A stretch of DNA of 13,437 bases from a virus. Position numbers and translations under genes: made by a program. The DNA is taken from positions 1-13,437 of the IMG/VR virus record IMGVR_UViG_3300045988_131345. One strand, given 5' to 3'. Shown piece after piece: positions 1 to 13,437 of this stretch; position 1 is the first letter of the stretch; each line of letters begins with the position of its first letter. The notes beneath the pieces are model-generated. The model saw only the letters and a list, made by a program, of their open reading frames with translations, was not told where the DNA came from and ran no database searches.

Positions 1-20
1 TTATTTTATCACTATACCGC

Positions 21-59
21 ATTAACGTATTCCCCTATTAACGCATTAACGCTTTAACG
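21..59 (+). repeat. Four direct iterons (A/T)TTAACG inside the ITR (mirrored at 13379-13417)
   Basis: ATTAACG occurs at 21-27, 37-43 and 45-51, and TTTAACG at 53-59. The longer GCATTAACG occurs at 19-27 and 43-51. The last three copies are spaced 8 nt apart. Confidence 0.85.
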
Positions 60-77
60 TGATAAAATAATAAAGCA

Positions 78-97
78 CACTTTAATACTTTAAAGTG
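78..97. repeat. 8-bp inverted repeat (hairpin or palindrome) inside the ITR
   Basis: CACTTTAA (78-85), TACT loop, TTAAAGTG (90-97). The arms are perfectly complementary. Mirrored at 13341-13360. Confidence 0.7.
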
Positions 98-169
98 ATA
101 CAAGTGCGTTGAAGTACAATAACGTAGATTTGTCTGAATATTACGACTTTTATAAATTTGAAAAATCTA

Positions 170-197
170 TTGCTTTTTATAGAGACTATGCTATAAT
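170..197 (+). promoter_or_regulatory. Sigma-A-type promoter inside the left ITR, firing inward
   Basis: -35 TTGCTT (170-175), 16-nt spacer, extended -10 TGcTATAAT (189-197). The predicted start near 204 precedes the SD GAGAGG (215-220) and ATG 229. Confidence 0.55.
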
Positions 198-228
198 AGA
201 CTTATCAAATGAAAGAGAGGTAATTGAT

Positions 229-450
229 ATGAGAATTAGAGAAAGAAGCTTATACGAAATTGAAGTAGACTATAATTGCGGATTGATTGAAAACAAGTAT
301 GCTAATACTGCAATGAGCATAGAAGAAGTTAAAGAACTTTGCAAAACTGACTATGTAGACGGTTACTTAAATTTAAAGAGAGAATTTGTAATACTATTAT
401 CTAATAATAGATATTTTAAAGTATTAAATAGGAGAGCTTTAGGATGGTAG
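229..450 (+). CDS. Hypothetical early protein (73 aa), first gene inside the left ITR
   Basis: ATG 229 lies 8 nt after GAGAGG (215-220). The ORF track extends it in frame to TTG 109, but that stretch has no SD and lies upstream of the predicted promoter. No recognisable motifs. Confidence 0.6.
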   Translation: MRIRERSLYEIEVDYNCGLIENKYANTAMSIEEVKELCKTDYVDGYLNLKREFVILLSNNRYFKVLNRRALGW

Positions 451-504
451 ACGCAATAGCAATTACTTTATTATGCTTAGGATTTTATTTAGGGGGGTAC
501 GACA

Positions 505-759
505 GTGCAAAGGAAAAATATGGAAAGAAACATTGACTTTGATAAGAGCGGATATTGCAAAGATAGGGACACATACAAAAGTCCCTATTTTGCGACTAAA
601 GCTTTTAACAATAATGAGCACAACAAAGGGTGTAACACATACGATATTGAGAAACGCCCTATATTAAGAAAAACAGAGCAAGGTGACTATATAATATTAG
701 GAGAAACAATCGAAATTGGATATGAAAAGGTGATTACAAATGGAAACAGTAAGAATTGA
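505..759 (+). CDS. Hypothetical early protein (84 aa; 79 aa if ATG 520 is used)
   Basis: GTG 505 lies 7 nt after GGGGGG (492-497); ATG 520 is an in-frame alternative. No recognisable motifs. Confidence 0.6.
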   Translation: MQRKNMERNIDFDKSGYCKDRDTYKSPYFATKAFNNNEHNKGCNTYDIEKRPILRKTEQGDYIILGETIEIGYEKVITNGNSKN

Positions 760-1306
760 TTTAAGACGTAAAGATATAGATATTGAAGCAGTAAGAAGTA
801 TTAGGAGAAAACTTGCGAAAAGAGCAAACCAAAGATTGCGTGTTTTAGAAAAAAATAAACTTACAAAGAACGCTTACAGAGTAGCTACATACTATACACA
901 GCAGACAAGAGGAGAAGACAGATTTAGTGAAGCAAAAATGGTTAAGGCAGATATGCGATACTTAAAGCAAGAAATACTTGAATTGGAAAGATTTTTAAAT
1001 TCCACGACTTCTACCTTGACGGGATATAAGAAATTAAAACAACAGAGATTGAAAGTTTTTCGAGAATACGGGCTTGAGGTTAAAGACGAACAAGAGTTTT
1101 TTGACTTTTTAAATTCTGAAATCTACAAACAACTTGCTAATAAAGCTATTTCTTCTGATATTCTACAAGAATTTTACGATACAGTGAAATCGAAAAAGGA
1201 CGCAAAGAAAGAGGAAATACAGAAAGCCCTTGAAAAGTTTAGGGAAGGAAATATAGACACAATAGAAGAGCTATACGAAGAATTTGACTTAACGTTTATG
1301 GAGTAG
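740..1306 (+). CDS. Hypothetical Lys/Glu-rich protein (188 aa); candidate terminal protein by position only
   Basis: ATG 740 follows AAAGGTGA (726-733). It overlaps the previous ORF by 20 nt and stops 3 nt before the polymerase ATG. It sits immediately upstream of a protein-primed PolB, like phi29 gene 3 and the Cp-1 TP gene. The C-terminus is acidic. I recognise no sequence similarity. Confidence 0.8.
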   Translation: METVRIDLRRKDIDIEAVRSIRRKLAKRANQRLRVLEKNKLTKNAYRVATYYTQQTRGEDRFSEAKMVKADMRYLKQEILELERFLNSTTSTLTGYKKLKQQRLKVFREYGLEVKDEQEFFDFLNSEIYKQLANKAISSDILQEFYDTVKSKKDAKKEEIQKALEKFREGNIDTIEELYEEFDLTFME

Positions 1307-1309
1307 ATT

Positions 1310-3343
1310 ATGGTAAAGTTTAATTTAACGGGAGAATTTAAAAATGAAGAAGCATTGTTTTACGAGGTGGAAGACCTTACCCCGTTAGATTATGCTATGA
1401 ACTGTGATATAGTATATAGTAAAGCAAGAAACAATAAGAAAGCATATTACAATTATCCGAACACTTTTGATATTGAAAGTACGACAGTAGATTGTGAAGA
1501 ACCTTATGCTTTTATGTATATTTTTATGTTCTGGTACAATGGAAAGGCTATTTGTGGCAGACGCTGGGAAGAATTTGTTAAATTTATTGATAATGTAGTA
1601 AAGTACAATAATGATGATATAAAGGTAGTATTTTATGTACATTATTTATCTTATGAATTCCAATTTATTAAAGATTTTTTTAATTGGAAAGAAGTATTTG
1701 CAGTTGAAGCACATAAAGTACTTAGAGCTACTTATAAGAATATCGAATTTCGATGCTCTTTTTATTTATCCAACATGAATTTAGAGAAGTTTTGTGAAAG
1801 TGGGAAGAATGTAAAACATCTGAAACAAGCAGGGCATTTTGACTACAAAGTATTAAGAACGCCAGATACGATTTTAACGAATGAAGAATTGACATATTGT
1901 TATTGTGACGTAGTCGGATTACATGAAAGATTATTGGAGTCTTTGGAAGACGATACAATGATTACAATACCATACACAAGTACAGGATATGTGAGAAGAA
2001 ACTGCCGTTTAGCAATGCGAAAAAACAAAGCAAATAGAGAACTATTTTTAAAGACGCGTTTAAATAAGGAAACTTACACTTTATTAAAAGAAGCCATGCG
2101 TGGCGGAAACACACACGGAAATTCTTTGCACGTAGAACAGATAGAGCATGATGTTAAATGTTTTGACATTGCTAGCTCATATCCAGCCGTAATGATGATG
2201 AAATATTATCCTGTTACTTGCTTTACAAAGGTAAAACCTACTATAAAAAGCTTTGAAAAATACTTAAAAGAGTATTGTTGTTTATTTAGGGTGCACTTTA
2301 TCGGATTAAAGATAAAGAAAGAAGTTCCAGTACCGTATATTTCCGAGCATAAGTGTTTAAAGAAAATGAACCCTTTAATTTTTAACGGGCGAGTAGTCGA
2401 AGCAGAAGTTATCTCCATGACAGTTACAGAAATTGACTTTGACATTATCCGTTCTGAATACACTTACGAAAAATTTGCTATTTCCGATTTTTATATTGCA
2501 AAACGAGGAGAACTACCAAAAGAGTTAAAAGATGAAATTATGACTTATTTTTATAATAAAACTACTTTAAAGAAAGTTGACCCGTACTTGTACGCAAAGA
2601 GTAAAAATCTATTAAATTCAATTTTCGGAATGGCTTGTACAGACCCTGTGCGTGAAATAATGTTATATTCTGAAACGGTCGGGTGGGTAAAAGAAACGGA
2701 AGATATAGAAGAAGCACTTGATAAATATTATCGTTCTTATAATAGTTTTTTGCCGTATCAATGGGGGATTTGGGTTACTGCTCATGCAAGATTGCAGTTA
2801 GAAAAGTCTTTAAGATTGACTAAAAGCCATACAGTCTACATTGACACAGACAGTAATAAGTGTGTAGACATACCCGACAACATTTTAGATGAATTAAATG
2901 AAGAAATAAAGAAAGAAGCAGAGGAACATAAAGCATACGTTGATTTTAACGATGAACGTTATTATCTAGGAGTATTTGAACAAGAGGACACTTGTAAAGA
3001 TTTTATAACAATGGGTGCGAAGAAATACGCTTATACGGAAGATGACGATACATTTCATATAACAATTTCTGGTGTATCTAAAAAATTAGGTGCGCAAGAA
3101 ATGATTGAAAAAGCAAAAGAAGAAAACGCTCTACCTATTGAACAGTTTAAAAGGGGGTTTATATTTTATAATTGCGGAAGAACAGTACACCGCTACAACG
3201 AAGAAAGACCGCATTATATTACAGTAAATGGTTGCAAGATACTGAATGCAAGTAACATCGCAATTACTGACAGTACATACAAGTTAAGCACGACTGATGA
3301 TTTTGAAAGTTTTATTGAAAATAACCTTGACATTATGATTTAA
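1310..3343 (+). CDS. Protein-primed family-B DNA polymerase (677 aa)
   Basis: Motifs read in the translation: Exo I FDIES (nt 1466-1480), Exo II region YLSYEFQF, Exo III YCYCD, motif A DIASSYP, motif B KSKNLLNSIFG, motif C YIDTDS (nt 2837-2854), and KxY as GAKKYAY. GGAG sits 6 nt before the ATG. Confidence 0.97.
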   Translation: MVKFNLTGEFKNEEALFYEVEDLTPLDYAMNCDIVYSKARNNKKAYYNYPNTFDIESTTVDCEEPYAFMYIFMFWYNGKAICGRRWEEFVKFIDNVVKYNNDDIKVVFYVHYLSYEFQFIKDFFNWKEVFAVEAHKVLRATYKNIEFRCSFYLSNMNLEKFCESGKNVKHLKQAGHFDYKVLRTPDTILTNEELTYCYCDVVGLHERLLESLEDDTMITIPYTSTGYVRRNCRLAMRKNKANRELFLKTRLNKETYTLLKEAMRGGNTHGNSLHVEQIEHDVKCFDIASSYPAVMMMKYYPVTCFTKVKPTIKSFEKYLKEYCCLFRVHFIGLKIKKEVPVPYISEHKCLKKMNPLIFNGRVVEAEVISMTVTEIDFDIIRSEYTYEKFAISDFYIAKRGELPKELKDEIMTYFYNKTTLKKVDPYLYAKSKNLLNSIFGMACTDPVREIMLYSETVGWVKETEDIEEALDKYYRSYNSFLPYQWGIWVTAHARLQLEKSLRLTKSHTVYIDTDSNKCVDIPDNILDELNEEIKKEAEEHKAYVDFNDERYYLGVFEQEDTCKDFITMGAKKYAYTEDDDTFHITISGVSKKLGAQEMIEKAKEENALPIEQFKRGFIFYNCGRTVHRYNEERPHYITVNGCKILNASNIAITDSTYKLSTTDDFESFIENNLDIMI

Positions 3344-3425
3344 TTGTACTATTATATACTTGTAACAAAGAAACAGATTTATTAAGAAAGAACAACACTA
3401 TATCTGATTAAAAGGAGAAAACAAC

Positions 3426-3773
3426 ATGAACAACAAAATTATGGTAAACGTAACAGCAAAGGACATTTTTAATGCACAGGTAGGAAAAGGATTTAAAGAA
3501 GCAGGCAGCGGAAAAATTGAAGGAAAGCTTACTGGATATGCAGTTTATGACACAGAGTCTGAGAATGAAGAAACTGGAGAAATTGAAACAAAAACAATCT
3601 CCTTAATGGTTGTTGACGGAGTAATCTATTCTGGTGAAAGTATTGTAATTGCAAGCAGAATAAGACAAATAAGACAGTTCACAACAGAAGAAGAAATTAA
3701 AGCGGGCATTCCTATTCAGTTCGGCGAATTGAAAGTAGGAAGGGGAACAGCAACAACGTTCATATTGAAATAA
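3426..3773 (+). CDS. Small acidic protein (115 aa); possible ssDNA-binding or replication accessory protein, function unproven
   Basis: Consensus SD AAAGGAG (3411-3417) lies 8 nt before ATG 3426. The gene sits between the polymerase and the packaging ATPase. The sequence looks beta-rich with an acidic central loop (ESENEETGEIE). The SSB idea rests on size and context only. Confidence 0.85.
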   Translation: MNNKIMVNVTAKDIFNAQVGKGFKEAGSGKIEGKLTGYAVYDTESENEETGEIETKTISLMVVDGVIYSGESIVIASRIRQIRQFTTEEEIKAGIPIQFGELKVGRGTATTFILK

Positions 3774-3783
3774 GAAAGGGGGA

Positions 3784-4815
3784 ATGGCGGTCTATCGACT
3801 GCCTTTCTTTATGTATTTAAACTTAGAAACATTAGAAAATAAATTAGATGTGTTTAATATAATTTTAGGAAATCGTGGCGGCGGAAAGACATATACTTGT
3901 TTAAGAGATTGTATAAAGAATGGAAAGAAATTTATATATTTAAGAAGAACACAAAAAGAGATACAGCGTATTGCAAAGAAGAAAGTAGATGTGTCCTTAT
4001 CTCCTTTTGAACCTCTTAATAAAGACTATCCAGATTGGCATTTAGAAGTAGAAGCCCTTGACGATGATATATACACAGTGACAAATGGATTTATTGGAGA
4101 TGAAAAGAAAAGTGTTGGTCTTATGTGTCCTTTAAGCACTTTTGCAAGTATGAGAGGTTTTTCTGCCCCCGACATAGAAGTGATTATATTTGATGAATTT
4201 AATCCAGAATTACATGTAAGAGGTATTAAAAATGAAGATGACGCATTTTTTAATATGTACGAAACAGTAAATCGAAACAGGGAACTGCAAGGAGAAAAGC
4301 CCGTACAAGTATTTTTGTTAGGTAACACAAATAATATTGCAATTCCAATTCTAGAAACACTCGGCTTAATTGAAGTAATAGAGGGTATGCAGAGAAAAGG
4401 AAAGAAATTTTATAATAACAGAAATCGAAACTTATTTTTAATGCTAATGGAAGACAGTGATTACATAGAGAAAAAATCCAAGACAGCTTTATATAAACTT
4501 ACAGCTGGTACAGAATTTTATGAAATGGCACTTGAAAACAAGTTTGCATATAATGACTTTAGCGACATAGAAGTTAAAAAACTGAATGAATACCGATTGG
4601 AGTTTACTTGTAATGATTTTGCAGTTTGGAAACACAAAAGCCGATTCGAATTTTATGTAACAAAGAATACAACAGGACGAGTAGACTATGAAAACACAGA
4701 AGCTGAAGCTGTGGCTTTACGAAATCGTATGAGATATTTATATAATGCTTATGTTGGAAGAAAAATAATTTATCAGAATTACAGGGTAAAAAAGTCCTTT
4801 ACAAATTATGTGTAA
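3784..4815 (+). CDS. DNA encapsidation ATPase, phi29 gp16-like (343 aa)
   Basis: Walker A GNRGGGKT (nt 3868-3891) and Walker B VIIFDEF. Blocks FIYLRR, TVNRNRE and GTEFYEMALENKF parallel my recollection of phi29 gp16 (FIYVRR, TVFRNRE, GTEYGEMSLDNQF). SD AAGGGGG lies just upstream of the ATG. Confidence 0.95.
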   Translation: MAVYRLPFFMYLNLETLENKLDVFNIILGNRGGGKTYTCLRDCIKNGKKFIYLRRTQKEIQRIAKKKVDVSLSPFEPLNKDYPDWHLEVEALDDDIYTVTNGFIGDEKKSVGLMCPLSTFASMRGFSAPDIEVIIFDEFNPELHVRGIKNEDDAFFNMYETVNRNRELQGEKPVQVFLLGNTNNIAIPILETLGLIEVIEGMQRKGKKFYNNRNRNLFLMLMEDSDYIEKKSKTALYKLTAGTEFYEMALENKFAYNDFSDIEVKKLNEYRLEFTCNDFAVWKHKSRFEFYVTKNTTGRVDYENTEAEAVALRNRMRYLYNAYVGRKIIYQNYRVKKSFTNYV

Positions 4816-4826
4816 TGTGTTATTAT
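4798..4826 (+). promoter_or_regulatory. Candidate promoter at the 3' end of the ATPase gene
   Basis: -35 TTTACA (4798-4803), 17-nt spacer, extended -10 TGtTATTAT (4818-4826). The predicted start near 4833 coincides with the first base of the structured element. Confidence 0.35.
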
Positions 4827-4833
4827 AATAATC

Positions 4834-4901
4834 GAGGAAGGGAACAACTCAAGGCTCGGAAAGCCGTTCATGGGTGGGAGCACCTAAACCTTCCTCTTTT
4901 T
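4834..4901 (+). ncRNA. Structured RNA element ending in a U-tract (candidate small RNA, or atypical terminator/attenuator)
   Basis: Outer 8-bp stem GAGGAAGG (4834-4841) pairs with CCTTCCTC (4889-4896), followed by TTTTT (4897-4901). The 47-nt interior can form two GC-rich 4-bp hairpins: GGCT/AGCC (4853-4856/4862-4865) and GGTG/CACC (4873-4876/4881-4884, GGAG loop). It is visibly more GC-rich than its surroundings and lies in the largest internal non-coding gap. Confidence 0.33.
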
Positions 4902-4904
4902 CCT

Positions 4905-4929
4905 AAAGGACATGAAATTCATGTTCTTT
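4905..4929. promoter_or_regulatory. Palindrome/hairpin upstream of the lysis genes (possible operator or RNA processing site)
   Basis: 10-bp stem AAAGGACATG (4905-4914) pairs with CATGTTCTTT (4920-4929), including one G-T pair, with loop AAATT. The core ACATGAAATTCATGT is a perfect 15-bp palindrome. It does not cover the holin SD (4935-4941). Confidence 0.4.
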
Positions 4930-4948
4930 ATGGAAAGGGGGAAACGAA

Positions 4949-5161
4949 ATGAATGAAATCGTGACAGTAGTCACAAATGCTATTAGCAATGTCGGTTTTC
5001 CAATCTGTTGTGTCGGTGCATTAGGTTATCTTCTGTATCGTGAGCAGGAATTACACAGAGAAGAAAGCAAGATGTTTACGAGCGCAATTAAAGATTTAAC
5101 AGTCGCGCTCACACAACTTTCAGAGAAGTTGGGGGGTAATGAAGATGCTGAGGATTATTGA
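4949..5161 (+). CDS. Small single-TM membrane protein (70 aa), YvrJ-like; putative holin
   Basis: SD AAGGGGG lies 7 nt before ATG 4949. One hydrophobic segment (VGFPICCVGALGYLLY) is followed by a charged helical tail. The N-terminal pattern NxGFPI...YLL resembles the YvrJ family as I recall it. The gene sits immediately upstream of, and overlaps, the endolysin gene. Confidence 0.8.
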   Translation: MNEIVTVVTNAISNVGFPICCVGALGYLLYREQELHREESKMFTSAIKDLTVALTQLSEKLGGNEDAEDY

Positions 5162-5738
5162 TGTAAGTAATTGGCAAGAAGGGCTTGTAGATTTAGCACA
5201 TCTGGAAAAGTACAACGCTGACGGGGTAATGATGAAAGCAACAGAGGGCAGAACTTTTACCGATAAGTCTCTTGATAGCTTTTATGACCGATTGCACGGA
5301 GCGAAAGACGGAAAACCAGATAAGAATAAAATTTATGGTTTCTATCATTACGCAAGACCAGAAAATAATTCCCCAGAACAGGAAGCAATGCATTTCCTCG
5401 ACAAAGTCGGACACCATGCAGGTAATGCGATTTTTGCTTTGGATTGGGAAGGAAAAGCATTAAACTATCCCATTACATGGGCTATTCGCTGGCTTGACTA
5501 TGTTTATGAAAAAACAGGTGTTCGCCCCTTGATTTACACACAGGGAAGTTACACAAAGTATTTGCAGAAAGTCTTAAACAGAGATTATGGACTTTGGGTT
5601 GCACATTACGGGGTAAAAAAGCCAAACATTGGAGTTTATCCGTTCTATGCAATGTGGCAGTACAGTGCAGACGGCATTGACCAGAATTATTTTAATGGTG
5701 ATGAAAAAACATGGAGAAAGTATTGTGAGGTGAGATAG
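5145..5738 (+). CDS. GH25 muramidase endolysin, catalytic domain only (197 aa; 199 aa from ATG 5139)
   Basis: GH25 signature blocks: IIDVSNWQ, KATEG, YGFYHYARP, ALDWE, MWQYS. GGGGGG (5131-5136) is 8 nt from ATG 5145 and only 2 nt from ATG 5139. No cell-wall-binding domain follows the catalytic domain. Confidence 0.92.
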   Translation: MLRIIDVSNWQEGLVDLAHLEKYNADGVMMKATEGRTFTDKSLDSFYDRLHGAKDGKPDKNKIYGFYHYARPENNSPEQEAMHFLDKVGHHAGNAIFALDWEGKALNYPITWAIRWLDYVYEKTGVRPLIYTQGSYTKYLQKVLNRDYGLWVAHYGVKKPNIGVYPFYAMWQYSADGIDQNYFNGDEKTWRKYCEVR

Positions 5739-5790
5739 TGTCTAGTATTTCAAAAATCTTAACAGAAAATAACAACGGAGTGCCTACATA

Positions 5791-6867
5791 ATGACTTGGA
5801 TAACAGGAAACAGGTATCTATCACAGTCGGAAATGGATGACAACGCTCTAATTGTTGCTCAAATACTTTTAGAGTTTGGATGGACTCATAACGCTATTGC
5901 AGGGACTTTAGGTAATATGCAATATGAGTCTAACATAAACCCCGGTTTGTGGGAAAATTTGAATGAAGGAAACACAAGCAATGGTTTTGGATTGACACAA
6001 TGGACTCCTGCAACAAAATTGATAAACTGGTGTAATAGTAAAGGACTTAACTACAAAGACGGAAATGCACAGTTACAACGATTGCAGTATGAAGTCGAAT
6101 GGGACGCACAGAGTCCCAATCAAGGTCAATGGATAAATCGAGATGGGCTATCCTTTGCCGAATACATTAAAAGCACTGATACTCCGACTAATCTTGCAAG
6201 AGTGTTTATCCGTTCTTACGAACGTCCAGCAAATGAAAACCAACCACAAAGGGGAACAGCTGCCGAACGATACTTTAATTTGATAAAGGATTTAGTAGGC
6301 GGAAAACTGGAAAAAGTGATTGAAGCAATTATGGGAAGAACAGTAGAATACAACGGGCACAAGGGATTGAACCTTTATTCACAGGACGCAGTATTGCGTA
6401 CACAAGTTTTTAATTTGCCGACAGGTCATTCTGACTGCTCCTCTCTAATGTGGAAAGCATTTGAAATCTACGGTGATACCTTTATTGGAACATGGACAGA
6501 AGAACAGAGAACACATGGTGAACTAGTTTGGACGAACACAAATCCAGACTGGCACACTGTCCCTTTAGAGGAACAAAGTAAAATCATGCGAGGTGATTTA
6601 ATATTCTATGGTACTTTAGGCGGGCAAAGCGAACACGTAGAAATGTTTCTAGGGGATAATCAACAGGTCGGTCATGGTTCTGGATGGGGACCGACTTTAA
6701 AGGTAACAAGCAACTATCGGCATCCGTACCCAGTAATGGAAGTAAGAAGATATTTATACGGGGGTGGAATTATACCACCGACAAGTCCACTTTGGAAAAA
6801 ATACTTGGGTGGAATTGTTAAAAAAAGGAGGAAAAAACAATGCAAACAAGTGATATTGTTAAATTAG
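5791..6867 (+). CDS. Two-domain peptidoglycan hydrolase: N-terminal phage-tail-lysozyme-like domain plus C-terminal NlpC/P60 endopeptidase (358 aa); probable virion tail lysin
   Basis: N-terminal pattern: GTLGNMQYESNINPG...GFGLTQWT...SYERP. C-terminal NlpC/P60 pattern: DCSSLMWKAF, GDLIFYG, HVEMFLG, VGHGS. It parallels phi29 gp13 (lysozyme-like plus peptidase) in architecture. Confidence 0.9.
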   Translation: MTWITGNRYLSQSEMDDNALIVAQILLEFGWTHNAIAGTLGNMQYESNINPGLWENLNEGNTSNGFGLTQWTPATKLINWCNSKGLNYKDGNAQLQRLQYEVEWDAQSPNQGQWINRDGLSFAEYIKSTDTPTNLARVFIRSYERPANENQPQRGTAAERYFNLIKDLVGGKLEKVIEAIMGRTVEYNGHKGLNLYSQDAVLRTQVFNLPTGHSDCSSLMWKAFEIYGDTFIGTWTEEQRTHGELVWTNTNPDWHTVPLEEQSKIMRGDLIFYGTLGGQSEHVEMFLGDNQQVGHGSGWGPTLKVTSNYRHPYPVMEVRRYLYGGGIIPPTSPLWKKYLGGIVKKRRKKQCKQVILLN

Positions 6868-7208
6868 TAAACGCAGGGTTTACGAAAGAGGAGATTATGC
6901 AGTTGGCTAGTCCAGCACAGCCACAGGTTCAGACACAGGTTCAGACACCAACACTGGTTCAGCCACAGGTTCAGCCACAGGTTCAGACACCAACACTGGT
7001 TCAGCCACAGGTTCAGCCACAGGTTCAGACACAGGTTCAGCCACAAGTTCAGATGCAGATGGCGCCGAATGTGGACTATAAAATGCTTTATGAAACACAG
7101 AAACAGATGCTTGCCGATATGCAGTCTTTAAATCAGAGAATGAATGTTGGTGCACCGATTGACACCGTGGAGAGCGTCATGAAGGATTTTCTTGGGGGTG
7201 AAAAATAA
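6840..7208 (+). CDS. Repeat-containing protein (122 aa); putative scaffolding protein
   Basis: Strong SD AAGGAGG lies 9 nt before ATG 6840. The gene sits directly upstream of the capsid gene, with a TAATG overlap at 7206-7210. A short helical N-terminus and a helical C-terminus flank a (P/T)QVQ array. The function is assigned by position, as for phi29 gene 7. Confidence 0.85.
   Translation: MQTSDIVKLVNAGFTKEEIMQLASPAQPQVQTQVQTPTLVQPQVQPQVQTPTLVQPQVQPQVQTQVQPQVQMQMAPNVDYKMLYETQKQMLADMQSLNQRMNVGAPIDTVESVMKDFLGGEK
6912..7052 (+). repeat. In-frame tandem repeat array (12-nt unit, with an exact 42-nt higher-order duplication)
   Basis: Units of (C/A)CACAGGTTCAG fall at 6921, 6933, 6963, 6975, 7005, 7017, 7029 and 7041. 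ACACCAACACTGGTTCAG occurs at 6945 and 6987. Segments 6945-6986 and 6987-7028 are identical. Confidence 0.95.
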
Positions 7209-8386
7209 TGCCGGCTAATGAATTAAGTATCAATCAGGTCAGTACAATTTTAAATGCAGTGGTTAAGCAGGCAACAGGAAACACAGCTTTAGCAACAGTA
7301 GACGGAAATAATTTTGCAACAGTGGCACAGTTACCATTGAAAATTGGATATGACCCTGTTATTAACGCTATTTCTCAGGTTCTGTCATCTACAATCTTTT
7401 CTGTCAGACCGTATTCAAGGAAATTTTCTGGTATCAATGTTAGCGAGCAGAAGTTTGGAAACATTACTAGAAAGTTGAACATTTCTGACAGTGAATGGTC
7501 TGATGACGACAGAATAGAGTTAGAGGATGGTAAAAGTGTTGACATGTATCCAGTCAAGAAACCGTCTGTGTTACAGACTAATTTTTACGGTGCTAATGCC
7601 TATCAGAGAATGACAACTATTTTTAAAGACCAGTTAGACGTTGCCTTTTCCTCACAGGAAGAATTTGGACGATTTATCTCCATGCTGATGACCAATGTTT
7701 CCGATATGATTGAGCAGGGGCATGAAAGTATGGCAAGAATGTGTATTCTTAACTACGTTGGTGGAAAGCTTGCTAGTGCAGATGAAGCAAATAACCGTAT
7801 TCATTTGCTTACAGAATACAATGCGCTTACAGGTTTGACTTTAGATGATAAAGACGTATATAAACCAGATAATTTTCCGTCATTCATGAAGTTTGTTGTT
7901 GCTAGAATTAAATCGATTTCCAACCTTATGACCGAAAGAAGTGAAAAGTTTCACACTAACGTTACTGGAAAAGAGATTATGCGCCATACACCACTTTCAA
8001 AGCAGAAATTGTATCTGCTTGCTCCACAGCAGTATTTAATGGAAACGTCCGTGCTGTCAGATTTATTTAATGATAAATACATGAAAATGACTGACTTAGA
8101 GTTAGTGAATTTTTGGCAGAATATCGATAAACCATCTAATATTGATATTAAGCCAATTTATATGGATAAGACTGGAAGTTTAAAACAGCCTACTGATACA
8201 ATCAAAGAGCCTCACCTTTTCGGTGTAATTTTTGATGAAGAAGCTCTGGGTTATACTACTGTAAACAGGTGGTCTGCACCTACACCTTTTAATGCAAGAG
8301 GGGGTTATCATAATATCTTCTGGCACTATACAGATAGATACTGGAATGACTTTACAGAAAATGGTGTTGTTCTACTGTTAGATTAA
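7208..8386 (+). CDS. Major capsid protein, phi29 gp8-like (392 aa)
   Basis: Placement by position (after the scaffold candidate, before the tail knob) and size. Two blocks resemble my recollection of phi29 gp8: ILNAVVKQATGN...FATVAQ and KDQLDVAFSSQEEFGRFISML. A hairpin follows the stop codon. Confidence 0.85.
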   Translation: MPANELSINQVSTILNAVVKQATGNTALATVDGNNFATVAQLPLKIGYDPVINAISQVLSSTIFSVRPYSRKFSGINVSEQKFGNITRKLNISDSEWSDDDRIELEDGKSVDMYPVKKPSVLQTNFYGANAYQRMTTIFKDQLDVAFSSQEEFGRFISMLMTNVSDMIEQGHESMARMCILNYVGGKLASADEANNRIHLLTEYNALTGLTLDDKDVYKPDNFPSFMKFVVARIKSISNLMTERSEKFHTNVTGKEIMRHTPLSKQKLYLLAPQQYLMETSVLSDLFNDKYMKMTDLELVNFWQNIDKPSNIDIKPIYMDKTGSLKQPTDTIKEPHLFGVIFDEEALGYTTVNRWSAPTPFNARGGYHNIFWHYTDRYWNDFTENGVVLLLD

Positions 8387-8400
8387 CAAGATAGGGGGTA

Positions 8401-8420
8401 AAGGGGACGTTAGTCCCCTT
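8401..8420 (+). other. GC-rich hairpin after the capsid gene, without a U-tract
   Basis: AAGGGGAC (8401-8408), loop GTTA, GTCCCCTT (8413-8420). It is followed by GAAATC, so it is not a canonical intrinsic terminator. Confidence 0.6.
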
Positions 8421-8429
8421 GAAATCTAG

Positions 8430-9794
8430 ATGGAAGTAATTTTTTATAAATTCAGTAAAAGAAAAAATAGTACGAAACAGGCTTCTAGAGGACTTTCTTA
8501 CAGGCACGGCACTTTAAAGGAGTTTTGTAGTATTACAAAGCCTATAATTCTTGTAGACATGGGGAAAATTCCAGATTACAATTATGCTTATATTACAGAA
8601 TTTAAAAGATATTACTATATTACTAATGTAGTAGTAGAAAGCGGTACAATGTGCAGAATTTACATGACTGTGGATGTATTGGCAAGTTACAAAGATGATA
8701 TCTTAAATGCGGATGTGTTTGTACAGCGTTGGAGCCGTTCGGAAGTCATTGACTTAGTGGATGGAGAATGTATCGCAAAAGCAAACCCTAAAATTATGAT
8801 AGAAACAGGTCGTATGCCACTCGATACGAAAGGGATTTTTGTTTTAGGAATAGCTGGAAAGAATGGAGAAGAAGCAATAACTTACTTTGACTTGTCTCTA
8901 GGACAGATGGAACGTTTTAATTATTTTATGTTTACGGAAGAAACTTTTGCGAGCGTAATATCCGAAGACGTAGTTAAATCATTTTTTAATCCCTTTGAAT
9001 ATGTAACATCTGCAATGTGGTTTCCATTTCCACATAGTCTGCAAGAAGCAAAGAAAATTGACTTCGGATGGTTCGAAAGCGAAGAAATGAAAGGTGTTCC
9101 GTTAAAAGGAAACTCTCTTACAAGTGGAGAACTTTGGATTAGAATTCCTAAAATGTACCCTAACGGAGATTTCAGAAATGGGACTTTTGGGCAATATGAA
9201 ATATACATTCCTTTCTTTGGCTCTATACCTCTGGACAGTAACATCATAAACAGTGCGGATGTTATTTCATATAAATTTGTTGTCGATATTGCAACAGGAA
9301 AAGCGCAATGCCAACTCGGATATGGTGATGAAAGCATAATAGAAAGTGGAAGTGGTACAGTGTTTAAAAGAATAGAGGGGCAAATGGGATGCCCTGTCGC
9401 TCTTGCACAAAGTAAAACAGATATTATAAATAGTGCTTTTAGTGGTGTTGGTAGTCTTGCAAGTGCACGTCCGTCCGCTGGTGGTGTTGTAAACGCTGTG
9501 CATGGGGTTTACAGTGCAGTACAGAACGCAATGCCTAAAATGGAAACAAAAAGCGGAAATGGTTGTAGAAGCATTATGGATTTTGAAAAGGACGTAAAAC
9601 TGACTGCCACATTTTATCGAGCTAATGTATTAAATCCAGAAGATAGGGGGTATATACACTGTAAAAGACAAACTCTCGGTAGTCTCGGCGGTGGTTTTGC
9701 TATTTGCGATAATGCAAGCATTTCGTTATCTGCAACGGAAGAAGAAATTACAGAAGTTAATAACTATGTGAATGGGGGAATTTATATTGAGTAA
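8430..9794 (+). CDS. Tail knob / distal tail protein, phi29 gp9-like (454 aa)
   Basis: Only possible start is ATG 8430, because an in-frame TAG lies at 8427. The N-terminal block YAYITEFKRYYYITNVV...MTVDVLASY parallels phi29 gp9 (YAFVTELEF...FEIDVLQTW), and the C-terminal LSATEEEITEVNNYVNGGIY parallels gp9 (NNNDLQEIRTIFDNGITLW). Both gp9 sequences are from memory. The gene sits between capsid and portal, as in phi29. Confidence 0.85.
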   Translation: MEVIFYKFSKRKNSTKQASRGLSYRHGTLKEFCSITKPIILVDMGKIPDYNYAYITEFKRYYYITNVVVESGTMCRIYMTVDVLASYKDDILNADVFVQRWSRSEVIDLVDGECIAKANPKIMIETGRMPLDTKGIFVLGIAGKNGEEAITYFDLSLGQMERFNYFMFTEETFASVISEDVVKSFFNPFEYVTSAMWFPFPHSLQEAKKIDFGWFESEEMKGVPLKGNSLTSGELWIRIPKMYPNGDFRNGTFGQYEIYIPFFGSIPLDSNIINSADVISYKFVVDIATGKAQCQLGYGDESIIESGSGTVFKRIEGQMGCPVALAQSKTDIINSAFSGVGSLASARPSAGGVVNAVHGVYSAVQNAMPKMETKSGNGCRSIMDFEKDVKLTATFYRANVLNPEDRGYIHCKRQTLGSLGGGFAICDNASISLSATEEEITEVNNYVNGGIYIE

Positions 9795-10677
9795 TTATCC
9801 TGTGGACTTTGATGGAGTAGCACGTTACAACACTAAAGTAACCCCTAGTACTGTGCATACATGGGGGACTTACAATGTAGAATTTTATAAGAGATATTTG
9901 CTTACTAAAGCAATGTCAGTTTTTGAATGGACTGTACCGAAAGAATGGTCGTTAGATTATTTTAAAAATTGTATATATGTAAACGGTAAAATATGTGTGA
10001 TAAATACAAATCGTTTTGGAGTAATCCCACAAATGTTTACGCCAGCAGGATATGACATCTATTATGAGCCTAACACAGCATACATTGCTAGCCCAATTTT
10101 AGGAGAGTACACACTGGAAATAGGTAAACAATGTGAAGTGATAAAGCTAAAAAGAGATTGGTGTGGAATTATGGATATTATTAACAATTATGCAGAATTG
10201 CTTGCCGAATGTGATAAGTCTATCGGTGTCAATCTTTTAAATACGAAAGTTGCTTTTACTTTTGCGGTAAACAGTAAAACAGAAGCCGAAAAAATGAAGA
10301 AAATCTATGACCAAATTACTTCTGGAAATCCGGCTGTATTTTACAAAGACGGCGGGGAAAAGTGGGATTACTTTAGTCAGAATTTAAAGCAAAATTACAT
10401 TGTACAAGATTTAATTATTGCTAAAAAGTCCATTATGGACGAGTTTAATACTCTTGTTGGTATTCCAAACGCAAACACGGAAAAGAGAGAAAGACTGGTC
10501 AAGGATGAAGTTAATGCAAACAATGCGGACACGTATTCGCTGGCTGAGGAATGGCTAGAAGAATTAAAAATCGGATGTGAAAAGGTTAATAGAATGTTTG
10601 GACTTAACTTGTCTGTTAAATTTAGGGAATGGGTGAAGCAGAATGGCGAAAATAACACTGTGGGGAATTTTGAATAA
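9772..10677 (+). CDS. Portal / upper collar connector, phi29 gp10-like (301 aa)
   Basis: FNTLVGIPNANTEKRERLVKDEVNANN...CEKVNRMFGLNLSVKFR closely parallels phi29 gp10 ([23 protein letters not shown]...CEKINELYGLNVKVKFR), and VFEWTVP parallels LFEWENLP. The start is uncertain: ATG 9772 has no SD, whereas in-frame TTG 9787 follows GGGGG (9774-9778). Confidence 0.93.
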   Translation: MGEFILSNYPVDFDGVARYNTKVTPSTVHTWGTYNVEFYKRYLLTKAMSVFEWTVPKEWSLDYFKNCIYVNGKICVINTNRFGVIPQMFTPAGYDIYYEPNTAYIASPILGEYTLEIGKQCEVIKLKRDWCGIMDIINNYAELLAECDKSIGVNLLNTKVAFTFAVNSKTEAEKMKKIYDQITSGNPAVFYKDGGEKWDYFSQNLKQNYIVQDLIIAKKSIMDEFNTLVGIPNANTEKRERLVKDEVNANNADTYSLAEEWLEELKIGCEKVNRMFGLNLSVKFREWVKQNGENNTVGNFE

Positions 10678-11212
10678 TTACCCCGAAATTATTAAAGGTG
10701 TGGAACTGCCGAACAACGTGGATTACGAAACGTTGTTGGAAGTTATAATATTTAAAGCAGGGGAAAATGAGGTCATGTACCCAAACCCTGTTTTCATGGA
10801 AATAGCAGTTCGTGCATGGTTTAGAGCGAAAAAGTACGAGTTTGATAAACTTGCAGAAACTTTGGATTTAGAATACAATCCGATTGAAAATTACGACAGA
10901 AAAGAAGAATGGACGGATAGAACAGAAAGTACAAGTAATTCCAGTACGAAAGGAAATGGAACAAGTATGGAAAGTAAATATGCGTTCGACAGCACGAGCT
11001 TTAATCCGTACACACGTACAGAAAACACGAACAATGATACTGATACTGTGCAGGGGAACGGGGAAACGGTGCACAGTGGAAAAATTCACGGGAATATTGG
11101 AGTTACAACGTCACAGCAGATGATACAATCTGAAAGAGAAGTTGCTAACTTTGATATATATGACTATATCGCAAATAAATTTGAAGACGCTTTTACGCTT
11201 GCGGTTTATTAA
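10643..11212 (+). CDS. Putative lower collar / head-tail adaptor protein (189 aa)
   Basis: Position directly after the portal gene, as for phi29 gene 11. Helical N-terminal and C-terminal parts flank a Ser/Thr/Asn-rich insertion. It overlaps the portal gene by 35 nt. Confidence 0.8.
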   Translation: MAKITLWGILNNYPEIIKGVELPNNVDYETLLEVIIFKAGENEVMYPNPVFMEIAVRAWFRAKKYEFDKLAETLDLEYNPIENYDRKEEWTDRTESTSNSSTKGNGTSMESKYAFDSTSFNPYTRTENTNNDTDTVQGNGETVHSGKIHGNIGVTTSQQMIQSEREVANFDIYDYIANKFEDAFTLAVY

Positions 11213-11228
11213 GAAAGGAGAAATAATT

Positions 11229-12815
11229 ATGAGTTTTGAAGTGTTTCCGTATACTAATTTTCATGAAATGAATTTGGATTGGTTAATTGAAAAAATGAAA
11301 GAGTTAGTAAAAGAATGGATGGACGTAGGCAAAAAGTGGGAAGAGATTAGAGAACTAATTGAAAACTTCTTAGACCACGTAGCAGTAGACATTTCCGAAG
11401 AAGTCAAGAAACAGTTAAAAGTGATGCTGGATAACGGAGAGTTAGAAGCAATTATCACAAGTTCCTTGGGAATTGTGACAAGCGTAGATACTTGCGTAGA
11501 ACTTAAGAAATCTACGAAATATAAGGTAGGGCAGGTTATTGTTACAAGGGGGTATCACAAAATCGGTGACAATGGCGGTGCAACTTATTACTTGTCAGAC
11601 ACTGCTTTTGAGGACACGGGGGTTTTCGAAAAAACAGCAAACGGATTATTTGCAAATATGCTGTACAATGATGTAATTTCCGTTGAACAGTTAGGTGTCG
11701 TTAGCAATGCTACTGGTGATTACACTACAAAACCTGCTAATAATGCGGTAGTTTTTAATAATGCCCTGACGCTTTGCAAAAGCAATTCTACAAGAAAACA
11801 CAAATTTAAACTTGTAGGTTACGGAAATTATTATGTAGAAACATCTTTGGATTTCGGCGGAACGAATGAAGCGAAAGTTTCAGACAGTGATTTCAAAACA
11901 GACTTTTCTGGTTCAACGATTTTCACAGATAAAAGCTTAGACGCTCTTATTTCTATTAAAAACGCTCAAGAAATTATTTATAGTTTTGGGTATATCAATG
12001 CAGAAACTTGTAATTACGGGATTAAAATTACCTCTTTGGAGCGCTATGACTGGACACAGTATGTTACTTTACAATGTTTAGATGTAAGAGCTTCAACAAA
12101 GTCCTTATATGTCAGTAACAATAATAAGGGCGGTTGGGTGAATGAATTACATGTTATCGGTGGCTTATATCCAAATGGAATATTTATAGATTGCCCGAAT
12201 CGAGTGGATGAAGTTTTTGTAACTAATATGCTCTCTGGTTTTTATTTTACGGACGTGTCCTGTGAAGGTGCTGATACGTGGTTTACGTTAAAAAATGTTG
12301 TTTACACATATATAAATAACGCGAGAACAGCAGACGTTAGTGACAAATGGCTTGAAACACAGCAAAATTGCAGTAACATTTATTTAACAGGTTCTTTTAG
12401 AACAGACCAATTAACAATATCACAGGAAACATACAATATCAACATAAGGGGCTCTTTAAATGTTCCTGATAACTTCACAATAAAAAATCCTATTTATATT
12501 AAAGGTGGGTGGGTTACAGATTTTCTACCGATTGCTTCATCACAAGGAAATGGGCGTGGCTTCATTAGAAATAATGATGTATCTCCTACAATTATTCAAT
12601 TTAAAGGAGATTGTTCAAAACTTATTCTACCGAAAGAATATTCAGACTATCTGGGTATAAATAAGTTTGAAGCATACTTCGATAGCAACTGCACGGGTAT
12701 CGTAAAAGACTCATATAAAGTAACAGTTGTTAATACAGAAAGTTATAGAGGTAGATATGCTACTATATACTATGTCGGAAATGCTTGGTGGATTAACTCA
12801 CCATCAAATAATTAA
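11229..12815 (+). CDS. Tail appendage / receptor-binding protein (528 aa)
   Basis: ATG 11229 lies 8 nt after AAAGGAG (11214-11220). The ORF-track start at 11142 lies inside the previous gene and has no SD. The N-terminus (FHEMNLDWLIEKMKEL) is coiled-coil-like and is followed by a long beta-rich region. It is the last gene of the structural block, like phi29 gene 12, but I recognise no sequence similarity to gp12. Confidence 0.88.
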   Translation: MSFEVFPYTNFHEMNLDWLIEKMKELVKEWMDVGKKWEEIRELIENFLDHVAVDISEEVKKQLKVMLDNGELEAIITSSLGIVTSVDTCVELKKSTKYKVGQVIVTRGYHKIGDNGGATYYLSDTAFEDTGVFEKTANGLFANMLYNDVISVEQLGVVSNATGDYTTKPANNAVVFNNALTLCKSNSTRKHKFKLVGYGNYYVETSLDFGGTNEAKVSDSDFKTDFSGSTIFTDKSLDALISIKNAQEIIYSFGYINAETCNYGIKITSLERYDWTQYVTLQCLDVRASTKSLYVSNNNKGGWVNELHVIGGLYPNGIFIDCPNRVDEVFVTNMLSGFYFTDVSCEGADTWFTLKNVVYTYINNARTADVSDKWLETQQNCSNIYLTGSFRTDQLTISQETYNINIRGSLNVPDNFTIKNPIYIKGGWVTDFLPIASSQGNGRGFIRNNDVSPTIIQFKGDCSKLILPKEYSDYLGINKFEAYFDSNCTGIVKDSYKVTVVNTESYRGRYATIYYVGNAWWINSPSNN

Positions 12816-12834
12816 GAGGGCTTACAGCCCTCTT
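12814..12834. terminator. Bidirectional hairpin terminator between convergent genes
   Basis: AAGAGGGCT (12814-12822), loop TAC, AGCCCTCTT (12826-12834): a perfect 9-bp stem. It overlaps the TAA of the + strand gene (12813-12815) and the TAA of the - strand gene (12834-12836). T/A-rich runs flank it on both strands. Confidence 0.7.
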
Positions 12835-13034
12835 TAATTGTATTCTATTTTAAATATTCCTAAAGCCCTTAACTCTTCATTATCAAATTGCCAATGTATA
12901 AGCCTGTTCTTTAGTGCCCTATACCCTCGTTCATTTATGTATGCAATCCTTGTTTTTCTGTCGATTGTTACAAATACAGTAGCGTATTTCTTATTTATCG
13001 TGCTTTTCGCCGTCAACATTGTTTGCAATCTCAT
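12834..13034 (-). CDS. Hypothetical right-end early protein (66 aa)
   Basis: ATG 13034 lies 8 nt after a strong SD GGAGGAG (13043-13049 on the - strand). It ends at the shared terminator. The protein is basic, with no recognisable motif. Confidence 0.7.
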   Translation of the reverse strand: MRLQTMLTAKSTINKKYATVFVTIDRKTRIAYINERGYRALKNRLIHWQFDNEELRALGIFKIEYN

Positions 13035-13085
13035 TTTTTGTACTCCTCCAATTTACGCAATAGATGATAATTTTCAATATATAAA

Positions 13086-13208
13086 TCATTTATTTTTTTT
13101 TGTTGATGTGCAGATAGCGTACACATAATCGCAATAACGTATTTCTTCTAACAATTCCCTACTAATTATAGCACCGTCAAATTTCATTACTTCTTTCTGT
13201 TTAAACAT
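13086..13208 (-). CDS. Small hypothetical protein (40 aa), first gene inside the right ITR; possibly truncated at an A9 tract
   Basis: Not in the ORF track because it is too short. ATG 13208 lies 9 nt after the ITR-borne GAGAGG (13218-13223). My hand translation is MFKQKEVMKFDGAIISRELLEEIRYCDYVYAICTSTKKNK, with the stop at 13086-13088. Confidence 0.45.
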   Translation of the reverse strand: MFKQKEVMKFDGAIISRELLEEIRYCDYVYAICTSTKKNK

Positions 13209-13214
13209 CTTATC

Positions 13215-13437
13215 TTACCTCTCTTTCATTTGATAAGTCTATTATAGCATAGTCTCTATAAAAAGCAATAGATTTTTCAAATTTATAAAAGTCGTAATAT
13301 TCAGACAAATCTACGTTATTGTACTTCAACGCACTTGTATCACTTTAAAGTATTAAAGTGTGCTTTATTATTTTATCACGTTAAAGCGTTAATGCGTTAA
13401 TAGGGGAATACGTTAATGCGGTATAGTGATAAAATAA
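13215..13437. repeat. Right inverted terminal repeat (223 bp)
   Basis: Perfect reverse complement of 1-223, ending at the last base of the window. Confidence 0.97.
13241..13268 (-). promoter_or_regulatory. Identical ITR promoter at the right end, firing inward on the - strand
   Basis: Mirror image of 170-197. It is followed on the - strand by the same GAGAGG (13218-13223) and a different ATG (13208). Confidence 0.55.

Follow-up and report, generated by a model that had tools for sequence, protein, structure and literature searches.

Phage phi29 (Salasmaviridae, 19.3 kb) encodes at the left end of its genome a 174-nt packaging RNA (pRNA; prohead RNA, Rfam family RF00044). Domain I of this molecule consists of an A helix, a C helix, a CE bulge, an E hairpin and a D hairpin, with a CE-D pairing that covaries across species (PMC5066667), and the pRNA has been stated, in reviews as recent as 2025, to be unique to the Bacillus relatives of phi29 (PMC5066667, PMC11476376, PMC12670572). 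Of phi29-like phages in general, Evseev et al. listed in 2024 more than 2000 sequences, many of them human-gut genomes of 12-15 kb (PMC11476376). Here we analyzed the IMG/VR virus record IMGVR_UViG_3300045988_131345 over its whole length of 13,437 nt (hereafter the window), and we describe a structured RNA located at the head of its late operon. This RNA has the topology of the pRNA and a covarying loop-loop pairing, occurs once per genome in a broad sister clade and corresponds to no Rfam family. It is an undescribed feature, and the most interesting one of the genome.

The closest cultured relatives of the window are the Amedibacillus phages AD70P2 and AD70P3 (12.3 kb; Guelinviridae in GenBank), which cluster apart from the Clostridium Guelinviridae according to Evseev et al. 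(PMC11476376). AD70P2 has the gene order of the window, namely a terminal-protein candidate, a family B DNA polymerase (PolB), the packaging ATPase, the scaffold, the major capsid protein (MCP), a tail knob of about 450 aa, the portal, a lower collar of about 200 aa and a tail protein of about 550 aa. It also has a 55-nt inverted terminal repeat (ITR) and, 3' of its ATPase gene, an RNA of like topology (manual parse). It differs by an amino acid identity of 24-40%, by its GC content (26.7% vs 35.3% for the window), by the location of its lysis genes, which form no cassette between ATPase and scaffold, and by a CGA loop in its RNA, which is not scored by the covariance model R1 presented below. 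The uncultured 12-15 kb phi29-like gut phages (GenBank MT83xxxx records from human faeces, uncultivated viral genomes (UViGs) of IMG/VR and the MCP clusters of Evseev et al., PMC11476376) share with the window the size class, gene set and order, ITRs and the late-leader RNA, and they include the window's own genus (91-99.8% nucleotide identity).

More distant from the window, Salmonella phage astrithr (Astrithrvirus, 11.6 kb) and phage Phanie are likewise small protein-primed podophages with related PolB (32%), MCP (23-25%), ATPase and portal, and their ATPase gene, too, is followed by that of a small YvrJ-like membrane protein. In contrast to the window, they have Gram-negative hosts, a portal gene preceding the MCP gene, no spacer after the ATPase gene, no RNA detected by R1 and a tail knob split over two genes (PMC11476376), and Phanie needs a helper. 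The window does not belong to Astrithrvirus: it has no DNA similarity to it, a single 454-aa knob and another gene order. With phi29 the window shares PolB, the gp16 ATPase, the MCP, the knob, the portal, the lower collar and a gp13-like tail lysin (40%), as well as the order scaffold-MCP-knob-portal-collar-appendage. However, the ITR of phi29 measures 6 nt, its early genes lie on the opposite strand, its ATPase gene ends the late operon, its pRNA is at the left end, and it possesses a head fibre, p4 and p6. Except for gp13, its proteins are at most 28% identical to those of the window, and gp11 has 293 aa vs 189 aa for the lower collar of the window.

A conserved three-way-junction RNA in the late leader

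The RNA lies in the 133-nt spacer between the ATPase gene and the gene of a 70-aa membrane protein, where we delimited the following features:

4798..4826, + strand: late promoter (TTTACA, 17-nt spacer, extended -10 TGtTATTAT)
4834..4901, + strand: conserved three-way-junction RNA (fold z-score, covariance model R1, covariation)
4897..4938, + strand: second hairpin, pairing the U-run with the Shine-Dalgarno sequence (SD; GGAAAGG) of the 70-aa gene; window genus only

With a fold z-score of -5.1, the RNA is closed by a helix P1 (4834-4841/4889-4896), from which a P2 arm and a P3 hairpin emerge, and is followed by a run of five U (4897-4901). In the P2 arm, 7 nt bulge out of the 5' strand, and the distal hairpin ends in a CGGAA loop. 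In the window, the bulge and the P3 loop are complementary over 3 nt only (CUC in the bulge, GAG in the loop). The second hairpin suggests alternative structures that could couple termination and translation. A 45-aa open reading frame (ORF; 4815-4952), counted as a gene in the preliminary description, was discarded in favor of a non-coding RNA region: 1-nt indels break its frame in five relatives, although the stretch is more conserved than its coding neighbours.

Among the relatives, a 4-bp hairpin with a C(G/A)GAA loop was found 30-130 nt past the ATPase stop codon in 81 of 100 loci, with stem sequences that vary freely. We parsed 52 distinct RNA sequences into a common set of elements, and 36 were placed in a sequence-only MAFFT alignment. 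In this alignment, 80.1% of the cells were paired, compared to 51.1% in shuffles and 37-45% with slid partners, a percentage that is inflated, to the detriment of our interpretation, because the seed RNAs had been chosen for parsing into these helices. Changes on both sides of a pair concerned 259 cells vs 86.6 in shuffles, the covariation score was 0.71 vs 0.20, and all four helices showed compensatory changes.

The covariance model (CM) R1, built from this alignment, was searched against 90 sources (1.13 Mb, both strands). This search and the bulge-loop test presented below are free of the seed-selection bias, and the parse never required complementarity between bulge and loop. R1 found one match per source in 71 of the 90 relatives and none elsewhere at E<1, ten of the matched genomes being outside the seed. 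The window RNA scored 41.9 bits (E 1.6e-7), and other sites were, for example, L052:5566-5632 and L039:5681-5747 (our contig labels, followed by positions). No match was obtained with R1 in Astrithrvirus, Phanie, Clostridium phage HM2 or phi29, and the model does not score the RNA variants of AD70P2 and L016.

The complementarity between the bulge and the P3 loop reached a mean of 4.15 nt within a genome, compared to 2.30 nt across genomes, and none of 5000 permutations attained this value. The duplexes were of 28 types, such as AGUCA/UGACU, GGUCA/UGACC, GCACA/UGUGC and GUAUCA/UGAUAC. On the 62 distinct CM matches, the same test gave 4.05 vs 2.31 +/- 0.09 (0 of 3000 permutations).

In these 62 copies, we also analyzed the surroundings of the RNA. 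A promoter (at least 9 of 12 consensus positions matched) ends 3-14 nt upstream in 50 copies (81%), compared to 2.2% of random positions, and an SD with a start codon lies downstream in 60 copies, at a median of 31.5 nt. Therefore, the RNA is the 5' end of the late mRNA. It always heads the late operon, and in three genomes whose modules for replication and structure diverge (L012, L099 and L109) it accompanies the structural operon, far from the ATPase gene, which rules out a physical tie to this gene. A U-run follows P1 in only 20 of the 62 copies (32%), which excludes a plain intrinsic terminator as a general explanation. In MT836587 (L015), we observed a tRNA gene 5 nt downstream of a weak R1 match (8491-8563 and 8568-8633, respectively, both on the - strand), and the late leader there may precede a tRNA.

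The Rfam models did not detect this RNA. The window gave no match, RF00044 included, in a permissive search (E up to 5), and at the gathering threshold eight related genomes gave one tRNA only, with a score of 145 bits for the phi29 pRNA used as a control in the same run. The absence of a recognisable pRNA stated in the preliminary description is thus correct as far as the Rfam model is concerned, but a conserved RNA with the topology of the pRNA is present at 4834-4896. We found no description of this RNA in the literature.

Genome ends, completeness and size class

The ends of the window form an ITR of 223 nt whose arms are 100% complementary and include the first and the last base, as initially proposed:

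1..223, unstranded: left ITR, with iterons, inverted terminal sequence, promoter and SD
13215..13437, unstranded: right ITR, mirror image of the left arm, with the promoter and SD of a 40-aa minus-strand gene

Within the ITR, tandem-repeat analysis revealed about five copies of an 8-nt unit, CGCATTAA, at positions 18-59, and the terminal 12 nt recur inverted at 59-70 (repeat arms 1-25/46-70). Reading the sequence by eye, we located an inward-facing extended -10 promoter (TGcTATAAT, 189-197) and an SD (GAAAGAGAGG, 211-220). Past nt 223 the two ends diverge: ATG 229 starts a 73-aa gene on the left (+ strand), replacing the TTG at 109 proposed earlier as the first start, and ATG 13208 starts a 40-aa gene on the right (- strand). 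The ITR thus looks like a combined origin, early promoter and ribosome-binding site.

The window shows the characters of the phi29-like protein-primed podophages, the assemblage of Salasmaviridae, Rountreeviridae and Guelinviridae as understood by Evseev et al. in 2024: linear double-stranded DNA with ITRs, a protein-primed family B polymerase, a gp16-type ATPase, a phi29-type MCP and a portal, and a tail knob of the gp9 fold with a gp11-type lower collar. Very probably, the window is a whole linear genome, that of a virulent phi29-like podophage known only from uncultured material, within a large gut-associated clade whose genomes normally measure 12-15 kb. The ITR, the hallmark families, the knob fold and independent assemblies all agree with the preliminary description of a complete protein-primed genome with a full set of virion and lysis genes.

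The window capsid protein is encoded by seven contigs, each of at most 20 kb. Among the related contigs, L001 (an ENA assembly) is 99.8% identical and spans positions 47-13391 of the window, and L004 (IMG/VR; 13,757 bp) is about 91% identical, with its own ITR of at least 219 nt beginning at window base 9. About 15 independent contigs enter the ITR from the inside, and none goes beyond base 1. The 90% clusters of five window proteins comprise 7 to 237 members, and the longest contigs listed measure about 13.1-13.8 kb, the sole exception being a 16.2-kb long-read contig. This contig was rejected as a sign of a longer genome, its extra 2.4 kb being an inverted and error-rich copy of the left end (fold-back).

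That the contig is incomplete or chimeric, with a perfect ITR created by assembly, appears very unlikely to us. Assemblers are able to generate terminal inverted duplications, one long-read contig is a fold-back, and the 89-nt terminal repeat of another contig, L007, does not match the window ITR. However, the ITR was found at both ends of independent assemblies from other samples (L004 and L023; 93-95% identity), with changes that match at both ends, the contigs converge on about 13.1-13.8 kb, the ITR holds functional-looking signals serving two different genes, and relatives possess ITRs of 24-262 nt. The idea that the phage depends on a helper, as does Acinetobacter phage Phanie, instead of being self-sufficient seems to us just as improbable. 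Phanie (11.9 kb) is a distant relative (PolB 32%, MCP 25%) that requires a helper myophage (Pourcel et al., summarised in PMC11476376), and the short lower collar of the window resembles that of the Phanie group. Against such a dependence, the window knob is in one piece with a full gp9 fold, unlike those of Phanie and Astrithrvirus, the window also carries a tail lysin, a spike candidate, a holin candidate and an endolysin, and AD70P2, with an equal order of structural genes, is on deposit as an isolate whose host strain is named.

Two contigs deserve mention for their ends. In L021 (ena:ERZ27273294 contig_2281, 16,242 bp), which is the long-read contig, positions 17-2459 repeat the left end in inverted orientation, with about 90% identity between the two partners and the junction within the ITR, and this head-to-head fold-back could be either an assembly artefact or a genuine by-product of replication. 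L007 (IMGVR_UViG_3300045988_080211, 13,114 bp) has an exact terminal inverted repeat of 89 nt unlike the window ITR and lacks the first 440 nt of the window. Its ends are truly different, or its assembly is artefactual.

The preliminary description had considered the genome as unusually small, close to the lower limit for tailed phages and a candidate minimal-virion lineage. Our results do not bear this out. The tail-knob family comprises at least 463 clusters, of which the 120 listed are on contigs no longer than 14.6 kb, related ATPases are encoded on at least 461 IMG/VR contigs, and among the 77 relatives fetched, the 19 whose ends form an exact inverted repeat of 20 nt or more measure 12.5-15.1 kb. 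Some cultured relatives are smaller than the window, namely Vibrio K58 g2 (10.4 kb), Astrithrvirus (11.6 kb) and Amedibacillus AD70P2 (12.3 kb). The sizes of the relatives in this populous clade therefore indicate that the size of the window is the norm: the genome is a typical member of a known, populous 12-15 kb size class and not an outlier. Taken alone, it is one more uncultured 12-15 kb phi29-like gut phage, and it leaves the lower size limit of tailed phages unmoved.

Regarding novelty, a search with the complete window by megablast gave no match among 50,697 deposited phage records, so that near-identity to a described phage was not observed, but near-identical uncharacterised contigs are public (99.8% in ENA, about 91% in IMG/VR). 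At the protein level, the nearest relatives are Clostridium phage HM2 and Amedibacillus phages AD70P2 and AD70P3 (PolB 40%), together with unannotated human faecal contigs from Mexico (MCP 46-49%), and the more distant ones are Astrithrvirus, Phanie, DU_PP_III and Vibrio K58 g2.

Gene content and expression signals

The window (GC 35.3%) encodes 17 proteins over about 93% of its sequence, in agreement with the count and the tight packing first reported, and zero tRNAs were found in a tRNA scan. All genes are on the + strand except two small ones at the right end, and the GC skew, positive along the whole window, fits this orientation. The early genes, those of replication and packaging and those of the right end are:

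229..450, + strand: first left-end early gene, 73 aa; SD within the ITR, conserved in the genus only
520..759, + strand: early gene, 79 aa; also called in the near-identical contig L001, genus-restricted
740..1306, + strand: terminal-protein candidate, 188 aa; directly 5' of PolB, position-based
1310..3343, + strand: protein-primed family B DNA polymerase, 677 aa; PF03175, phrog_1907
3426..3773, + strand: candidate phi29 p5-like single-stranded DNA-binding protein (SSB), 115 aa; PF17427 E 4.3e-4
3784..4815, + strand: gp16-type DNA packaging ATPase; PF05894, phrog_2150
12814..12834, unstranded: bidirectional intrinsic terminator (9-bp stem, detected on either strand) that divides the late operon from the right-end genes
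12834..13034, - strand: right-end early gene, 66 aa; 93-100% conserved in the genus
13086..13208, - strand: first right-end gene, 40 aa; SD in the right ITR, 55-aa gene there in relatives

The 73-aa protein gave no family match in the Pfam and PHROG scans. Homologues of the 188-aa protein, 25-35% identical, occupy the equivalent position in AD70P2, HM2 and gut contigs, and hhalign, profile and phmmer searches revealed no similarity of this terminal-protein candidate to phi29 gp3, PDB, Pfam or PHROGs. PolB matched PF03175 at E 1.2e-10 (41.3 bits, cut-off 25.8) and phrog_1907 at E 1e-44, and is 40% identical to the polymerases of HM2 and AD70P2. The ATPase matched PF05894 at E 5e-21 (75.9 bits, above cut-off) and phrog_2150 at E 1e-41. 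Its true start is probably ATG 3811, giving 333 aa as in the relatives, which begin at residue 10.

The late genes, all on the + strand, encode the lysis and virion proteins:

4949..5161, + strand: 70-aa single-pass membrane protein; NVGFPI motif at the N-terminus; holin candidate (phrog_4898, holin, E 0.0023)
5139..5738, + strand: GH25 muramidase endolysin, 199 aa; PF01183 E 5e-33, phrog_291
5791..6867, + strand: tail-associated lysin, 358 aa, counterpart of phi29 gp13; phage tail lysozyme and NlpC/P60 peptidase
6840..7208, + strand: scaffold candidate, 122 aa, with a (P/T)QVQ repeat array; just 5' of the capsid gene
7208..8386, + strand: phi29-type MCP, 392 aa; PF25622 E 1e-19, whole profile
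8430..9794, + strand: tail knob, 454 aa, in one piece; AlphaFold2 and Foldseek
9772..10677, + strand: portal (upper collar), 301 aa; PF05352 E 5e-27, phrog_2038
10643..11212, + strand: lower collar, 189 aa; gp11 profile match
11229..12815, + strand: tail spike or appendage candidate, 528 aa, probable right-handed beta-helix; position of phi29 gp12

The family of the 70-aa NVGFPI membrane protein was found at 59 of 110 loci. The protein scored 10.9 bits against YvrJ (PF12841), below the gathering threshold of 29.5. YvrJ was a sub-threshold Pfam match in all ten family members tested (10.7-19.3 bits), those of Salmonella and Acinetobacter phages included, and the top match in most. Across the clade, we observed a conserved small membrane protein whose N-terminus bears an x-GFP-I motif and leads into a helical, often NNT-rich tail (window 4949-5161; L011:4164-4352; L020:4307-4519), and its gene usually adjoins the RNA or the ATPase gene on the 3' side, also in the Salmonella and Acinetobacter phages. 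The endolysin consists of the GH25 catalytic domain only, and no domain for cell-wall binding could be recognised in it. Between endolysin and tail lysin, close relatives have an extra 103-aa gene (L023:5719-6030, L022:5543-5854), where the window has a 52-nt spacer (5739-5790). The tail lysin matched PF18013 (Phage_lysozyme2) at E 6e-35 and PF00877 at E 2e-8, and is 40% identical to a stretch of phi29 gp13.

For the 122-aa protein we infer a scaffold role. Its (P/T)QVQ array is encoded by a 42-nt tandem repeat (6918-7032, to 7053; 2.7 copies, 98% matches), and the length of the protein varies from 102 to 126 aa between strains. Many short-read contigs break at this repeat. The MCP scored 71.5 bits with PF25622, above cut-off, and its best public relatives are human-faecal contigs, 46-49% identical. 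The capsid and knob genes are separated by only 43 nt, which leaves no room for a head fibre gene, and no match to p4 or p6 was obtained in the window, so that the lack of these three phi29 functions noted at first is confirmed.

Direct searches of the three large proteins of 454, 189 and 528 aa gave no family match in Pfam or PHROG and no PDB sequence match, and comparison of the 454-, 189-, 529- and 188-aa proteins with PDB by phmmer and profiles gave nothing useful beyond a weak gp11 match. Since the profile of the knob family was too weak against phi29 gp9 (hhalign E 0.038 only), the knob was identified through structure prediction. The AlphaFold2 model of the 454-aa protein, from a 120-sequence alignment (pLDDT 85.8), matched phi29 gp9 (5fb5, E 4e-11), C1 gp12 and the Andhra knob, with Foldseek E values from 4e-11 to 1.5e-8 and a probability of 1.00 for each. 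Residues 328-367 form a disordered, low-confidence loop of 40 residues, which we assume may correspond to the membrane-active loop of phi29 gp9. The portal scored 95.6 bits with PF05352, above cut-off. For the lower collar, the family profile aligned with phi29 gp11 at an hhalign probability of 91.7% over 42 columns, the 189-aa protein had a weak PDB match (6qz9), and two of nine family members matched phrog_3225, 'adaptor Ad4', which is the GenBank label of phi29 gp11. The start of the spike gene was corrected to ATG 11229. This 528-aa protein has few homologues, the distant ones with PF12708, and the best Foldseek matches of its model were all phage tailspike depolymerases (beta-helices), with E 0.01 at best, which tentatively suggests a probable beta-helix spike.

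From the biology of phi29, we propose the following working of this genome, of which the ITR promoter and SD signals and, through covariation, the RNA fold are seen in the sequence. The terminal protein (candidate 740-1306) would prime the family B polymerase from both 223-nt ITRs. The promoter of the left ITR would drive an early operon of two small genes, the terminal protein, PolB, SSB and ATPase genes, and that of the right ITR two small genes up to the bidirectional terminator. The near-consensus promoter at 4798-4826 would start the late transcript, the first 63 nt of which fold as the three-way-junction RNA. Then would follow, in order, the YvrJ-like membrane protein (holin candidate), GH25 endolysin, tail lysin, scaffold, capsid, tail knob, portal, lower collar and spike genes, and DNA would be packaged by the gp16-type ATPase acting on the portal.

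Several observations weigh against this interpretation of the genome. Consensus promoter matches over the whole window were no commoner than expected by chance (51 found vs 49.8 expected), and the assignment of early and late genes leans on such matches. The terminal protein is a candidate by its position alone, the SSB match to PF17427 (20.9 bits) is under the Pfam cut-off of 25, and the AlphaFold2 model of the spike is weak (pLDDT 62). Finally, two scans of 185,579 GTDB species genomes, using the MCP and the tail lysin, revealed no relatives. The GH25 and NlpC/P60 enzymes, the strong SDs, the sigma-A-type promoters and the kinship with Amedibacillus and Clostridium phages point to a putative Bacillota gut host. 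The YvrJ-like protein, earlier taken as a sign of a Gram-positive host, has family members in Salmonella and Acinetobacter phages and a score below threshold, and it therefore says nothing on the Gram type.

Possible functions of the RNA

The window RNA and the prohead RNA (RF00044) are alike in their three-way junction closed by the 5' and 3' ends, their bulged arm with a capped helix and their hairpin loop with Watson-Crick complementarity to the bulge. This junction and a covarying complementarity equivalent to that of the CE bulge and the D loop are structural features that the window RNA shares with the prohead RNA functional class, and it falls outside RF00044 as defined by Rfam. The two differ in several respects. 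The RNAs of the window clade measure 63-75 nt vs about 120 nt, and their invariant C(G/A)GAA loop has no pRNA counterpart. They stand at the 5' end of a late mRNA, whereas the prohead RNA is a separate early gene.

A possible but tentative explanation is that the RNA is a miniature analogue of the pRNA acting in trans. Either processing or termination at the U-run would liberate it from the late transcript, of which it forms the 5' end, and a ring formed through bulge-loop pairing between copies would dock the gp16 ATPase on the portal. The elements follow the order of phi29 pRNA domain I (end-pairing helix, arm with a 5' bulge and a distal hairpin, second hairpin), and 3-6 nt of the bulge are complementary to the loop of the second hairpin, with covariation between the two. 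There is a single copy per genome, these phages possess an ATPase and a portal of the phi29 type, the 5' end of the RNA coincides with the predicted transcription start, and the U-run that termination would use is found in the 20 copies mentioned above. However, this U-run is missing in 68% of the copies, and an SD and the first late gene always lie within about 30 nt downstream. The RNA tracks the late operon and not the ATPase, it has half the length of pRNA domain I, and comparison with RF00044 in both directions gave no similarity by sequence or by CM. It is also absent from Astrithrvirus, Phanie and HM2 despite like types of ATPase and portal, and the bulge-loop pairing could equally be intramolecular. 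In phi29, a basic patch at the N-terminus of the portal binds the pRNA (PMC9965433, ref. 51), and the portal N-terminus of the window, read by eye, has no such patch.

We consider it slightly likelier, at about even chances, that the RNA is a cis-acting leader of the late operon, in other words a protein-binding, attenuating or antiterminating element. The nut boxB pentaloop of lambda and the put sites of HK022 are structured RNAs of about 65-70 nt found just past the promoter that heads a long operon, with a conserved 5-nt hairpin loop. Unlike the window RNA, they have no closing helix, three-way junction or covarying bulge-loop contact. The small share of probability that is left goes to an RNA that is neither a leader nor a packaging RNA. 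A self-cleaving ribozyme or a riboswitch appears unlikely, given the lack of an Rfam match and junctions that are short and not conserved.

Each of the two main readings of the RNA has its own consequences. As a cis-acting leader, the RNA would represent a new class of late-gene control element, in phages with no recognisable transcription regulator. As a packaging RNA, it would mean that RNA-assisted packaging is widespread among small phi29-like gut phages, beyond the Bacillus relatives of phi29, with AD70P2 as a possible test system. It would also be the minimal natural form of a molecule much used in RNA nanotechnology, and the pRNA would predate the split of these lineages. The RNA thereby bears on the way in which the nuclease-less ATPase of other phi29-like motors docks on the portal.

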